Assembly (NCBI GenBank): GCA_964016885.1 | Contig: OZ024745.1 | Span: forward strand, 128,278,001-128,342,000 | DNA: 64,000 nt | Source: Eledone cirrhosa | Taxonomy: Eukaryota | Direction: 5' to 3' | Shown: positions 2,749-62,682 of the stretch, one piece after another | How the letters are laid out: every line of letters begins with the position of its first letter | Position numbering within the stretch: the first letter of the stretch is position 1 | Notes under the pieces: generated by a model | Told to the model about the DNA's origin: nothing | The model's database searches: none | Seen by the model: only the letters and a program-made list of their open reading frames with translations | Translations under genes and position numbers: made by a program

Positions 2749-3127
2749 TATATATATATATATATATATTAAGATAGGGGGGAAGAAAAAATGGCTTCAC
2801 TTGTGCTTTCAACAAATGTATTTTCTTCACAAAATCCAAAAAGAATTTTTCTTAAAAAAAATTATTTTATAAATTAAGTTGTTGGTTGTTGGTTAGGTCT
2901 TAGGAGTTCTTGGTTAACGTAGGAGGTATTGTTTCGTTTTTAGAAAGACCTTTCACGCTGAGGTGCGCTTGTCAAACTGATGTGTATGTGGTGTGTCGTT
3001 CTATATATAGGGATTTAACATGTCTGTGGTGTGGTGGGGGTTTCTTTTCTCCCTCTTTAATAAGTGCATGGGTGTATAAGCAAAAGGGATATTTAAGATA
3101 TGTCAATATTTATAAAACAAAGTTTTG

Positions 3128-3188
3128 TATTTTATCTGATGAGAGCGTACCAAAGTTTTGGTACGCTTGAAATATATATTATAGAATA
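3128..3188 (+). ncRNA. Minimal type I hammerhead ribozyme motif, family A
   Basis: TATTTTAT-CTGATGA-GAGCGTACC(AAAGTTTT)GGTACGCTT-GAA-ATATATAT-T-ATAGAATA: conserved core, paired stems I and II, palindromic stem III. Confidence 0.8.
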
Positions 3189-3347
3189 AATACGGTTTTA
3201 TAAATATAGTTTCCATTTATTAATATCATTGATATATATATATATATATATATATCTCAATGTAAAATATTACAGAGCCGAAATACATCCTAGGATGAAA
3301 CGATTGTAAGTGATTAAATGTTTTAAACACTCTTTGATTGTTATTTA

Positions 3348-7899: not shown

Positions 7900-8471
7900 T
7901 ATGTAATTTCTCTGTTGCTCTACCAGTACTACAATCTCGCTAATTATTATATGTGTGTGTGTGTGTGTGTGTGTGTTTGCGTGTATGTGTGTGTATGTGT
8001 GTGTATGCGTTTGTATGTGTGCATGTGTGTGTGTATATATACATATATGTGTGCATATGTGTGTGTATGTGGGTGGATGTGTGTATGGGGCTTATGTGCG
8101 TTTGAGTACGTGTGTGTGTATGTGTGTGCTTGTGAGTATATGTGTGTGCCTGTGAGTGTATGTGTGTATATTTGTGTATGTGTTTGTTTGTGAATGTATG
8201 TGTGTATGTTTGTGTGTTTCTGTGTGTTTGCGTGTGTTTCTGTGTGTTTGCGTGTGTTTCTGTGTGCGTGTATGTGTGTGCGTGTGTGTGTGTAGCGATG
8301 GGTATATATATATATATATATATATATATAACCAAAGGTAAATAAGTTCATTGATTACTCAATGAATATAGTTTTACAATAGATTAAAAGCACTCTACAA
8401 TTAAGTTTTCTGGAGTTATTAATATTATTTGAAATATTAATAAATGAAGGCGCTCACATAATCAAAATATA

Positions 8472-8537
8472 TATTTTATTATATATATTTCGAAGGTACT
8501 GTGTTGTTTTTTCAGTACGTCCTCGTCAGATAAAATA
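8472..8537 (-). ncRNA. Minimal type I hammerhead ribozyme motif, family A
   Basis: Reverse complement: TATTTTAT-CTGACGA-GGACGTACTG(loop)CAGTACCTTC-GAA-ATATATAT-A-ATAAAATA. Confidence 0.82.
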
Positions 8538-8787
8538 CATGAATTGATGTATGACATACCTCAACGGTCTTGATAGTTCAATTCCAGTATTGGCATATAT
8601 GTATATATGTATATATGTATGTTTGTATGTGTATGTGTGAGTATATATACGTATGTATGTGTAAGTATGCATATGTATGTAAATGTATGTATGCATATAT
8701 GTATATATATGTATATAAGTATGTATGTACATACGTATGTATGTATGTGTGCATGTATGTACGTATGTATGAATGCATGTATATATG

Positions 8788-9587: not shown

Positions 9588-10765
9588 TTAGATGCAAAAT
9601 ATTTGGAATGTTTTACATATTTTTACTGTTCCATTAATGGATTGTACTTGTAATTTCCTAACTAGTTGTGTTCTTTCTGTTCCTGTGAAGCCTAGCTTCT
9701 CAAGATTTGTATTGAGGCAGTTACTAACATACCCCAGTGCCCCAATAATCATAGGCATAAATCTGAAGGTGTAATCAGGGTGGAGTATCTGCAGATTTCT
9801 CATCAGTTCTGCATAAATATTCTCCTTTTCACTAATCTTTGATATTATATTGGTATCTTCTGGGCAGCTAATTTCCACTACTGTGCATGCTTTCTTCTCC
9901 CTGTCCCATATCATATCTCGTCTGTTATTCCTGCATTTTATTGGGGTTTTTATTGGAACATTCCACCAGTACTTTTTCATATCATGTACAAGGATGTCTT
10001 CCACATTGCTGTAGCTTTTAATGTGTTTATTATCGGGGCTATCTTTTTTACGAACTGCATTGTACAGTGTTTTGGCCACTACAACATGCCTCATAGGTAG
10101 ATAGTACCGCGATGACATCTTTGGACAGCTGCTGATGACATGGGTGATATCCTCGATGTTAGTTCTGCAGAGTCTGCACTTGTTATCACATCTAGGTGTT
10201 TTGCCTGCATCCCTATCTCTTTTGTGAATCAGGTATTTCGTATTAACTCCTGTTCCTGGATTGCAAAAGCGTATCTTTCAAAGTGGGAGCCAATATAGCG
10301 GTTGTTGGTCAGATATTGGTGAAGCAGTTAGGTCATTCGTGACAATGTTGCTAGATTGGGTTGATTTTCCCCGCTTTACAGTCATGTATGAGCATTTATC
10401 TTGGACAAACTCCATTCCTATATCCTTTGAGAACGTTGTAACCAGGTCCTCCTAAGTTGTCGTACCTCCGACATCGCAGTTTTGTTGATTAGGAGTTGTT
10501 CAGCACATCCCCAAACCCCTTTCTTTCCAGCTGCTTGTTATTATTTTCACGGTGATCTTGGAGGAATAGGTTCAGGCCTATATATGCATCAGGTTCTGGC
10601 ATGCAATGGGTCGGTAGTTTTTTGCCAAGTGAGTGTCTTTGTTCTTGGGGACCAGTAATGTTTGTGCTAATGTCAACCATTCTGGTATAAGTGTATCTCC
10701 CTCAAGAACTTGTTGGTAGAGGTGTGTAAGATACCTCCGATAGAATATCAGTTTTTGTACCATGT
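9588..10765 (-). mobile_element. R4/Dong-like non-LTR retrotransposon relic (RT N-terminal piece, CCHC finger, RLE endonuclease)
   Basis: PEWLTLAQTLLVPKNKDTHLAKNYRPIACQN (start of RT); FAIQEQE; CRLCRTNIEDITHVISSC (C-X2-C-X8-H-X4-C); RH...NRRDMIWD...VEISCP...K..EK..Y (PD-(D/E)xK RLE). Most of the RT core is missing. Confidence 0.88.
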
Positions 10766-16004: not shown

Positions 16005-16040
<36 letters not shown>

Positions 16041-16168
16041 TATAAACCAGTAGAGCAAATATCTATTATTAGATTAAAAGTTTAAGGAACGAACTTCACA
16101 TATGAGATGATCTCGCTTAGAGTGTAAGCAGAAATTCATTGCTAGAACATTTAATCTGTACTAATAAT

Positions 16169-16210
<42 letters not shown>

Positions 16211-19875: not shown

Positions 19876-19965
<90 letters not shown>

Positions 19966-19966
<1 letters not shown>

Positions 19967-20440
19967 AGAGGTTATATTTAATTTGTTGGGATTCAACAAG
20001 CTTAAAAAAATGTTATAACTGATATAAAGCACTCAACAGAATAGCGGAGTAAATACACAATATATAAATGGAAACTATATTTATAAAACCCTATTTATTT
20101 TATTATACATATTTCAAGGGCAACCAAGGCAAATTATGGTGCGCTTTCATCAGATAAAATACAGATTTGTTTTATAAATAAATATTGACATACCCGGGAA
20201 AAAAAGACAACCTTAACGGTTGGAGCTTCCTGGATAGTGGAGATATTACATTTATTGAGGGTGATACAAAATTATGAGTGAGTATGCAAATGAGTGTCCG
20301 AAAGGTTGAAAAGATAACGGTTTATTTAAATTAAACTGTTGGAAGAAGGTGATATGTAAGGGAGAGAGAAATAAAAAATAAAAAAAATAAATAAATATTG
20401 TTTTATAAATATAGTTTCCATTTATTAATATATTGTATAT
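19966..20440 (-). mobile_element. Family A hammerhead element with partial inverted 3' arm
   Basis: 19966-20228 is near-identical (reverse complement) to 62418-62682. 20370-20440 is an inverted copy of the post-cleavage segment. Flanked by (TA)n. Confidence 0.75.
20096..20161 (-). ncRNA. Minimal type I hammerhead ribozyme motif, family A
   Basis: Reverse complement: TATTTTAT-CTGATGA-AAGCGCACCA(loop)TGGTTGCCCTT-GAA-ATATGTAT-A-ATAAAATA. Confidence 0.75.
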
Positions 20441-20449
20441 ATATATACA

Positions 20450-25892: not shown

Positions 25893-25926
25893 TCTTCTGA
25901 CGAAGGACTAGCGACCGAAACGTTAA
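25893..25926 (+). ncRNA. Minimal hammerhead-like motif, family C (stem I 3' side lost)
   Basis: TCTT-CTGACGA-AGGACTAGCGACC-GAAACGTTAA; palindromic AACGTT stem III. Confidence 0.45.
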
Positions 25927-27503: not shown

Positions 27504-27953
<450 letters not shown>

Positions 27954-52752: not shown

Positions 52753-53236
52753 AAATACAATAATATAATACAACCAGAAGGGCGCATAATAGAAAAAATA
52801 CTTTGAAAGGAAGGTGCCCCTGAAATAGGAATACAAATGGAATAAAACAAGTTTCGCGTAAATCTAAGTACGGGTTCCCGAGAGAAAGAGATAGTGGTTG
52901 TGAGAGAGTAGATTGAAAGAGAGCCATAGAGAGAGGGAGAGGAGACAGAGAAGGAGATTGGAAGGGAAAGAGAGAGCTGGTGGTGAATGTGCGTGTATAT
53001 ATATGTGTGTGTGTGTCTATGACCAGTGTATATAGATCACAGACAACCATATATATATATATATACACACATACATATATATATGTGTGTGTGTACACAC
53101 ACATTTATATATATATACACATTTATATATATATACATACACACACGTATATATATATATATATATATATTAAAGAGTTAAACACTTCCTTGATTAAATC
53201 TTAACCATTTAACATCTCAGGGTATGTCATGTATCA

Positions 53237-53297
53237 TTATATTTTGTCTGATGAGGACGTACTGTTGTACATCCGAAATATGTATAATAAAATGTAA
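53237..53297 (+). ncRNA. Minimal type I hammerhead ribozyme motif, family A
   Basis: TTATATTTTGT-CTGATGA-GGACGTAC(TGTT)GTACATCC-GAA-ATATGTAT-A-ATAAAATGTAA; 11-bp stem I. Confidence 0.85.
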
Positions 53298-53333
53298 TTG
53301 ATCAAAAGAGCATCTATTTTATTAATATTTGTA

Positions 53334-53384
<51 letters not shown>

Positions 53385-56766: not shown

Positions 56767-56831
<65 letters not shown>

Positions 56832-56979
56832 TAATAAATGTGAAGACTGAAATCCGAAAAGGGCTCGATAAGGATTATATATAACACCCCCTCCGCACAC
56901 ACACACACACTCAAGCATGAACCTAATACCTACACAGTTCGTAATTGCACTCCTTGTTATGGTTTTTGTTTTTTACTTT

Positions 56980-57020
<41 letters not shown>

Positions 57021-57290
57021 GGTAAATCTACCAAAATATATCCTAGAAACGATCGTAAAATTATGAATTTTTTAATATAAGGAACTTGTTCTTTGTTTTT
57101 ATTCATTGTTTTTATTAATTTATATATATATGTCCTGCGTCTCCAACAGACCAGTGTCTGTCCTTAGGGCAGCAACATACGTTAGCCTTGGTCTTCCTCT
57201 TCCAGTGTGTCCATGTAGGGGCTCCCACAGGAGCACTGAGTGCATTGTCAACTCTGGATGTCGGTGAGCATGTCCAGCAAACCTCAGTCT

Positions 57291-57703
57291 GATATTAATA
57301 AATGGAAACTATATTTATAAAAACATATTTATTCTATTATATATATTTTAAGGGCACCAAAACTTTGGTACGCCCTCATCAGATAAAATACAGAATGTTT
57401 TATAAATATTGATATACCCAGGAATCAGACCGGAACGGTTCAAGTTCCGTTTGGATAGTTCCAAACGGAACTTGAACCGTTAAAGTCTGATTCCTATTTA
57501 TAAAACAAACTTTGTATTTTATCTGATGAGAGCGTACCAAAGTTTTTGTGCCCTTGAAATATATATAATAGAATAAATATATTTTTATAAATATAGTTTC
57601 CATTTATTAATATCATTGATATTATACTCCAGAAATCTGTCGGGTGCTTCGAATCCGTTATAAATATATTTGTTGAATTACCAACAAATTGAATATCCCT
57701 TTG

Positions 57704-57706
<3 letters not shown>
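57291..57706. mobile_element. Family A fold-back element with hammerheads on both strands
   Basis: Imperfect arms 57291-57455 and 57460-57614 around loop TAGT. Motifs at 57330-57390 (minus, GAAA mutated) and 57515-57575 (plus). Confidence 0.82.
57515..57575 (+). ncRNA. Minimal type I hammerhead ribozyme motif, family A
   Basis: TATTTTAT-CTGATGA-stem II (mismatched)-GAA-ATATATAT-A-ATAGAATA. Confidence 0.68.
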
Positions 57707-57758
<52 letters not shown>

Positions 57759-57760
<2 letters not shown>

Positions 57761-57916
57761 GTAGAGCAAATATTTATTATGAGAACAGATTAAAGTTTAA
57801 GCAAGAATCGCTGCTTTCACCCTTAACAGGATCTTCTGAAACACCCGTTAAGGATGAAAGCAGCGATTCTTTGCTTAAACTTTAATCTGTTATTTTAATA
57901 AATATTTGCTCTACGG
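57759..57916. repeat. ~70-bp-arm inverted repeat adjacent to (TA)n
   Basis: CCGTAGAGCAAATATTTATTA...CCTTAAC pairs with GTTAAGG...AATATTTGCTCTACGG; diverged relative at 16045-16170. Confidence 0.88.
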
Positions 57917-57975
57917 TTCTTATATATTTGATATATTTTATCCTTATCGAGCCCTCTTTGGATTTTAGTCTTCAA

Positions 57976-58004
<29 letters not shown>

Positions 58005-58009
<5 letters not shown>

Positions 58010-58105
58010 CGAGGTTAATAATGCCTTTCATCCTTACGGGGTCGATAAAATAAAGTACCAGTAATGCACTGGTTAATTGCTGGCATTGTGCCAAAAGTAG
58101 AAACA

Positions 58106-58145
<40 letters not shown>
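58005..58145 (+). mobile_element. SINE family 1, 3' half
   Basis: Central block plus (ATT)n tail. Confidence 0.85.
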
Positions 58146-58198
<53 letters not shown>

Positions 58199-58315
58199 AG
58201 TTGAAGCTTAGTAAAATCGAAGTCTGGCTGTGGGCAAGCAAAATCGACCATATATATATATATATATATATATACGATATTAAACAAATGGAAACTATAT
58301 TTATAAAACCATATT

Positions 58316-58381
58316 TATTTCATTATACATATTTCGGGGATACCATATTAAAAATATGGCATGCCTTCGTCAGATAAAATA
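58316..58381 (-). ncRNA. Minimal type I hammerhead ribozyme motif, family A
   Basis: Exact mirror of 58516-58581. Confidence 0.78.
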
Positions 58382-58515
58382 CAATATATAAACAGTTTTA
58401 TAAATAATTTTGACGTACCATAAATATGAGCGACCATTATGTGGGAAGCTTCCCACATAATGGTCGCTCATATTTATGGTACGTCAAAATTATTTATAAA
58501 ACTGTTTATATATTG

Positions 58516-58581
58516 TATTTTATCTGACGAAGGCATGCCATATTTTTAATATGGTATCCCCGAAATATGTATAATGAAATA
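58516..58581 (+). ncRNA. Minimal type I hammerhead ribozyme motif, family A
   Basis: TATTTTAT-CTGACGA-AGGCATGCCATATT(TTT)AATATGGTATCCCC-GAA-ATATGTAT-A-ATGAAATA. Confidence 0.78.
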
Positions 58582-58709
58582 AATATGGTTTTATAAATAT
58601 AGTTTCCATTTGTTTAATATCGTATATCTACTCCAAAAACTTGTCGAATGCTTTATATCAGTTATAAAATATTTACTTGTTGTAACCCAACAATTTTAAA
58701 TAAAACTTT

Positions 58710-58758
<49 letters not shown>

Positions 58759-62340: not shown

Positions 62341-62678
62341 TGCAGAGGTTATATTTAATTTGTTGGGATTCAACAAGCTTAAACATTTTTATAACTGATA
62401 TAAAGCACTCAACAATTAGCTCCAACCGTTAAGGTTGTCTTTTTTCCGGGTATGTCAATATTTATTTATAAAACAAATCTGTATTTTATCTGATGAAAGC
62501 GCACCATAACTTGATTTGGTTGCCCTTGAAATATATATAATAAAATAAATATGGTTTTATAAATATATTTTCCATTTATTAATATATTGTGTATTTACTC
62601 CACTAACTTGTTGAGTGCTTTATATCAGTTATAAAAATGTTTAAGCTTGTTGAATCCCAACAAATTAAATATAACCTC

Positions 62679-62682
<4 letters not shown>
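62341..62682 (+). mobile_element. Family A hammerhead element with ~78-bp terminal inverted repeats in (TA)n
   Basis: 62341-62419 is the reverse complement of 62603-62682; the interior carries the ribozyme. Confidence 0.85.
62482..62547 (+). ncRNA. Minimal type I hammerhead ribozyme motif, family A
   Basis: TATTTTAT-CTGATGA-AAGCGCACCA(loop)TGGTTGCCCTT-GAA-ATATATAT-A-ATAAAATA. Confidence 0.75.

Follow-up and report, generated by a model that had tools for sequence, protein, structure and literature searches.

Insertions of Penelope-like elements (PLEs) in Adineta vaga carry inverted pLTRs, a 31-bp tail and palindromes of 18 and 38 bp at the pLTR 5' end, and in the accessible portion of the paper these junction palindromes are already read as self-priming (PMC3846280). 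Minimal hammerhead ribozymes lie in the pLTRs of metazoan PLEs, with opposite-strand pairs 100-700 bp apart, according to the part of PMC4209133 used here. The Hydra clade of PLEs is set by the protein motifs RWK, DKT and CxCX5C and the lack of CCHH, and both Hydra and Naiad elements have been linked to (TA)n (PMC8557442, in part). For Poseidon_Ac, the available sections of PMC11167929 describe two internal RT starts in vitro and the cutting and extension of both target strands; the process did not depend on ribozyme cleavage, and reads ending at the cut were absent. The same portions of PMC8557442 and PMC11167929 call the formation of PLE inverted repeats an open problem. Twin priming and dual priming of L1 were defined in PMC2837659, where the accessible passages treat dual priming as speculative, and retrozymes are treated in PMC7229834 and 10.64898/2026.07.22.740005 (both in part). 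No map of preferred PLE junction sites was found in the main texts of the openly accessible literature.

The window analysed here, 64,000 nt of Eledone cirrhosa DNA (contig OZ024745.1, positions 128,278,001 to 128,342,000; coordinates below are window positions), holds seven copies of a stub family, labelled A to G. The stubs are a known kind of insertion and are real; they were likely left by a Penelope-type jumping gene. A head-to-head inverted, 5'-truncated copy is present in five of the seven (A, B, C, D, and G), and A, B, and D pair a short end with a long end. Copy B is a perfect palindrome centred at 58448/58449: its left, short-end arm (58270-58448, minus strand, hammerhead 58316-58381) is identical over 179 bp to the right, long-end arm (58449-58713, plus strand, hammerhead 58516-58581, predicted cut 58573/58574), which carries a donor-like GGTACGT at 58478 and continues as an 86-nt tail into (TA)n. 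Copy A turns on a 4-nt TAGT loop (57456-57459) with 22 perfect pairs around it. Its left, short-end arm (57291-57455, minus strand) adjoins a LINE-like fragment and has a hammerhead at 57330-57390 (minus strand) in which GAAA is changed to AAAA; its right, long-end arm (57460-57704, plus strand, hammerhead 57515-57575) ends in a tail of ~83 nt into (TA)n. Beyond the perfect pairs the arms of A are several substitutions and a 12-nt deletion apart, the deletion taking the GT donor-like motif out of the right arm. In copy D the long-end arm (19965-20345, minus strand) contains a hammerhead at 20096-20161 (minus strand, predicted cut 20104/20103), and the inverted short-end arm (20360-20445, plus strand) starts at about the predicted hammerhead cut, an A-rich run blurring the exact start.

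The remaining copies are built less evenly. Copy C joins two long ends unequally, an inverted 80-bp piece (62341-62419, minus strand) that is 98.75% identical to 62603-62682 preceding a forward arm (62418-62682, plus strand, hammerhead 62482-62547). In copy G ~20 nt of inverted long end (3078-3097, minus strand) are joined to a short-end arm (3097-3233, plus strand) that starts at the donor-like motif (D ~20194-20195), with nothing shared between the two pieces. Copy E is a single divergent long-end arm (8330-8594, minus strand) and copy F a single divergent short-end arm (53171-53335, plus strand) between (TA)n runs. The subfamilies among these copies are 70-83% alike.

Across the family the outer ends of the arms fall at two points, separated by 83-92 nt, and these ends are far sharper than the inner junctions. 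The one-sided tail measures 83, 86, or 92 nt and carries a TTGTTG…CAACAA hairpin close to the long end (62590-62682 and equivalents). Except at the left ends of A and G, the outer ends lie in (TA)n, and a target-site duplication is unreadable because they lie in such runs. Among the loose ends listed in same-species data, those in (TA)n at the short end (20064-20066) are represented by 55 contigs and by 8,298 and 9,475 reads, read counts that library bias inflates. In A, B, and C the sequence ACTC begins 3-7 nt past the short end; an ACTC…GAGT stem just behind that end folds in three of five copies (C, D, and E, not A and B). A tail-to-tail joint, 20066|20066, was also seen at the short end, as were short-end tandem repeats leading from 20085 and 20110 back to 20066; together these suggest repeated priming at one start.

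A hammerhead core was found in seven of eight arms and fits a type I fold. Pairing is kept in 96.5% of 144 cells across the eight arms and 5 of 18 pairs are changed on both sides, figures favoured by the structure having been drawn from the same eight arms on which it was scored; the covariation score was reached by 0 of 500 shuffles, and slid controls were 39-59% paired. Variation in stem I is of the G-U kind only. Helix I has 8 bp, the long helix II carries an additional base behind A9, and helix III, palindromic, has two pairs and a 4-nt loop. The type I fold, the long helix II, the extra base after A9, and the palindromic helix III with its loop are as in PLE minimal hammerheads, whereas helix I has 4-5 bp in those described in the part of PMC4209133 used here; the two pairs and 4-nt loop of helix III are a further difference from them. 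An Rfam search detected no hammerhead, its 99 matches being repeat-driven, and a repeat search of the window was dominated by microsatellites. A 21-nt core pattern found no match in viral contigs; in metagenomes it hit seven loci with little match past the pattern, which were dropped as chance. Further motifs resembling the hammerhead core lie at 25897 and 27639-27717, including an opposite-strand pair separated by 36 nt.

With EN+ PLE insertions, as far as these are covered in the accessible parts of PMC3846280 and PMC8557442, the stubs share the head-to-head arrangement, the shorter inverted arm, the one-sided tail, and the junction palindrome. They differ in having no ORF between the repeats, in the several reused junction sites mapped here, and in a tail two to three times longer (83-92 nt vs. 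30-40 bp). The inverted-repeat, tail, and junction-palindrome layout is already published for PLEs, so that what is gained is a clue to mechanism rather than a new system. As for Poseidon_Ac, two RT starts would account for the tail, both target strands would be cut and extended, and the target is AT-rich; the stubs are known here from sequence alone, and PMC11167929, in the sections available, leaves the head-to-head junction aside. The likeness to the Hydra clade consists of the hammerhead and insertion into (TA)n only (PMC8557442, in part), the clade-defining motifs being in protein, of which none was recovered here. No RT or GIY-YIG gene could be linked to the stubs; Pfam returned nothing relevant for four open stretches, three in D and one in E, at low power with 42-49 residues. 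A GIY-YIG C-terminus was suspected in the 115 nt upstream in D, and Pfam gave no match for it. This region (D 20231-20345) is multi-copy element sequence, since 33 contigs share one variant at 20271.

An earlier note on this DNA had proposed that the turn is fixed at one conserved GGA-(A)GCT-TCC mini-hairpin, at a constant distance upstream of the ribozyme. Its four motifs lie where it put them: B is centred on GGAAGCTTCC at 58444-58453 (GGAAG|CTTCC) and A on GGATAGTTCC at 57453-57462, GGAGCTTCC occurs at 20222-20230, and copy C, with the hammerhead at 62482, starts exactly at AGCTCC (62418-62423). In D, GGA-AGC-TCC is truly there but had been assigned to the strand opposite to the D ribozyme. 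The constant distance holds only roughly, five of the seven boundaries lying 65-77 nt upstream of the CTGA core. From boundary to core there are 75.5 nt in B, 75.5 nt in the left arm of A (CTGA at 57382) and 65.5 nt in its right arm with the 12-nt deletion, 72 nt in C, ~65 nt in E, and ~77 nt in F, but ~39 nt in G and >190 nt in D. Clustering of at least five of seven within 19 nt has a chance of 0.008 with uniform boundaries and of 0.04-0.18 when short, exponentially distributed truncation lengths are assumed.

A single conserved motif is contradicted by the alignment, as the centres of A and B are not homologous. The A centre corresponds to D 20236/7 (its loop to 20235-20238), the B centre to 20225/6 (its AG|CT to 20227-20224), and the start of C to 20227; the 8-mer that anchors the A loop in D was seen in 0.12% of shuffles. 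B and C both use AG|CT, and by homology A turns ~11 nt upstream of that site; it does not turn at the AGCT position itself, where it reads GGAACTTGA and D reads GGAAGCTCC. Copy D is neither inverted nor cut at the motif: it passes 20222-20230 and runs on for ~115 nt of element sequence, its motif being 73 nt and its boundary >190 nt from the core. Stems of 3 bp with loops of 3-4 nt are common, with nine in the 185 nt upstream of the D core, and since an inversion itself mirrors the left half from the right, the GGA…TCC of A and B says nothing independent about a prior hairpin. A TTGA-TAGT-TCAA in E resembles the A centre; it aligns downstream of that centre and was not counted.

Public same-species runs were mapped on D (5,082 contigs from X1 and 45 from X5; 30,509 reads from X8 and 32,891 from X9) and on the B centre (164 contigs and 1,197 reads; run X6 gave 0 records and X7 one). 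The raw reads come from reduced-representation libraries, which under-sample perfect hairpins and whose counts reflect few loci, and B-type folds may be undercounted because such libraries disfavour perfect hairpins; hairpin chimeras can also form in libraries. Plotted in this way on D and B, the listed breakpoints fall at several sites. Recurrent junction sites, mostly asymmetric, lie at D ~20195, 20202, 20214, 20226, and 20236. Fifteen of the 28 joints on D are listed; 11 of these 15 change strand and 9 of the 11 are unequal, and none of the 15 falls at 20222-20230. Position 20195 is used by five of the listed joints, with differing partners, and by copy G; the symmetric one of the five, 20195|20195, is carried by 5 and 14 reads. 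The joint at 20236, the A centre, recurs in three of four runs; further strand-changing joints lie at 20274, 20286, and 20179, and two at the short end (20064-20068), all among the joints listed. Two weak joints are near the predicted ribozyme cut: 20008|20103 (2 reads) and 20100|20179 (with 5 letters of slack). Read-end piles at 19980, 20132, 20332, and 58491 (at AATT) and loose ends stopping at CATG were rejected as element ends, being inferred library cut sites.

Five joints were found at B, with counts that the inferred AATT and CATG cut sites also inflate: 58470|58470 (18 reads, 3 starts), 58470|58499 (13 reads, 2 starts), 58458|58458 (5 reads, 2 starts), 58458|58460 (3 reads, 2 starts), and 58447|58482 (3 reads, 2 starts). 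The symmetric turns 20195|20195, 58470|58470, and 58458|58458 outnumber the B centre in reads. At that centre, contig depth crossing into the mirror is 28-34 vs. 519-672 just to the right (~5-7%), and 1 of ~100 reads crosses; most molecules start at 58447, the A of AGCT, being cut there or running into other sequence. In addition, 108 reads of a variant subfamily run on upstream, their mixed consensus resembling D. The AG|CT site is used symmetrically by B, asymmetrically by C, by the joint 58447|58482, and by other contigs crossing the B centre; it is reused, as one of ~5 sites between D 20195 and 20236. Summed contig depth on D falls from 650k to 143k across 20176-20214 and from 146k to 87k to 19k across 20215-20253, steps that subfamily divergence and read length also give, depth not being copy number. 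Self-complementary words are already present in the un-inverted D (CCGG at 20196/5, AGCT at 20226/5, TTAA at 20215/4), and the joints at 20220, 20236, 20274, and 58470 are off any even palindrome of the reference. The earlier view is right in that the junctions are not random and AG|CT is reused; a preferred junction zone is real, and a single hairpin signal is unsupported. A hairpin that fixes the turn would have counted as a novel signal, and the data argue against it.

We consider it slightly better than an even bet that the stubs in (TA)n were made by extending both ends of one DNA cut, the cDNAs being joined head to head. The layout, the two fixed outer ends, and the several recurrent junction sites are observed. 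A Penelope-type enzyme would extend both ends of a single cut in (TA)n, priming at two fixed RNA points that lie 83-92 nt from each other. Synthesis of each cDNA would continue to the end of its template: in most cases this would be an RNA 5' end situated 65-77 nt upstream of the core of the ribozyme, and in fewer cases a point close to the GT donor-like motif or to the ribozyme cut. Annealing of the two cDNA 3' ends at whichever self-complementary word is nearest (AG|CT, CCC|GGG, or TT|AA) may then yield a perfect palindrome; an unequal join may instead yield copies such as C, D, and G. The zone would exist most simply because the template RNA begins there. The joins of C and G point to two cDNAs primed from both cut ends, since a one-cDNA fold-back would need further steps, and symmetric turns at words pre-existing in D are what annealing between two like cDNA ends would produce; unequal joints could also come from one-sided loss after insertion. 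In A, the right arm has a family-recurrent variant (a G put in behind 20165, in 17 contigs and in 324 and 424 reads) absent from the left arm, a single case of the discordance expected of two templates. Counting against the scheme, the arms of B share a rare variant (C at 58454 vs. T in 104 of 106 reads), for which a fold-back accounts equally well. The failure to link an RT or GIY-YIG gene and the Poseidon_Ac results on ribozyme cleavage (PMC11167929) weigh on the same side. The scheme resembles L1 twin and dual priming in that both cut ends prime cDNA and an internally joined inverted insertion results; in the accessible part of PMC2837659, the segments copied in twin priming come from a single RNA and do not overlap, whereas the stub arms overlap, and therefore two RNAs (dual priming) or a tandem template would be needed. 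A more specific version, tentative and distinctly below even odds, is that the inner junctions record three RNA 5' ends (the start 65-77 nt upstream of the core, the donor-like site, and the ribozyme cut) and that two cDNAs primed from both cut ends run off these RNA ends and anneal to each other at self-complementary words. If this is true, PLE inversions would come from dual priming and the ribozyme would cut in vivo.

The snap-back of the earlier note, in which one cDNA stops at the mini-hairpin, folds on itself and serves as primer for second-strand synthesis before integration opens the hairpin, appears unlikely. A and B are symmetric and both turn 75.5 nt from the core, the rare variant is common to both arms of B, D holds a pre-existing GGA-AGC-TCC, and when a cDNA stops at 20220-20222 its 3' end is paired in the predicted fold (-0.8 to -3.7 kcal/mol), a joint being present at 20220. 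Nevertheless, A and B turn at non-homologous sites, the last base is unpaired in every 30-nt cDNA end fold at 20223-20261, and the B centre is crossed by only 28-34 of 519-672 depth units and 1 of ~100 reads. Most joints are asymmetric, C, D, and G are not fold-back products (the pieces of C and G are not mirror images), and with two fixed arm ends the short end requires a second rule. We give similarly little credence to the amplification of a few short or already inverted masters, whose unstable palindromes lost part of one arm and whose boundaries were inherited. Discrete reused sites are expected of masters, 20195 is common to five joints with different partners, and C retains one arm exactly up to the B centre; against this, the boundaries cluster across subfamilies just 70-83% alike, a single subfamily shows several sites, and the inverted arm of C is a long end where A, B, and D have short ends.

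That a small circular retrozyme RNA was copied from both DNA ends, with the stubs as the shortest products and the zone as an RT stall, is quite improbable. The type I hammerhead with palindromic loop III would suit it, but the tandem ~300-nt monomers, each with a hammerhead, of non-LTR retrozymes are absent from the window, there is no internal repeat in the 380 nt of D, and the long helix II with an extra base after A9 is as in the minimal hammerheads of PLEs (PMC4209133, in part). DNA-repair fold-backs or assembly artefacts at (TA)n are largely refuted already and retain a very small probability: A and B do sit in a microsatellite-rich region and B is perfect, yet the flanks are unmirrored, the inverted arm ends at the family-wide short end, the arms of A have diverged, and one contig, which may come from the assembled sample, crosses the B centre without differences. 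Between two-sided priming and self-priming, a short zone with several reused sites favours the former, and exact positions are gained for AG|CT, CCC|GGG, the A loop, and the ribozyme cut.

Several features of the surrounding sequence are worth recording. All subfamilies retain GG|GTAYGT upstream of the ribozyme (58478-58485, 57411-57419, 20188-20195, and 62448-62456), and junctions cluster just before it: G and five of the joints listed sit 1-2 nt upstream of the conserved GTAYGT, which we take to resemble a splice donor. An AATAAA lies at 20252-20257 (minus strand) in D, 15-30 nt upstream of the boundary zone, and another is found in the loose-end consensus of a B-type subfamily; the RNA end may be set by it, as a poly(A) signal or as a box of TATA type. 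The fragment adjoining the left arm of A (57140-57290, minus strand) may be the C-terminus of an RTE-type LINE, which it resembles, and a 229-residue open stretch at 9588-10277 (minus strand) with a weak zf-RVT match (E 0.019) is likely a LINE fragment. Between A and B lies a second, unrelated head-to-head element (57757-57980) with arms of ~80 bp that are 87% alike, an unequal turn near 57826-57846, a short end in (TA)n, and a long-arm tail of ~55 nt; partial copies of it occur at 16031-16169 and 56825-56875.
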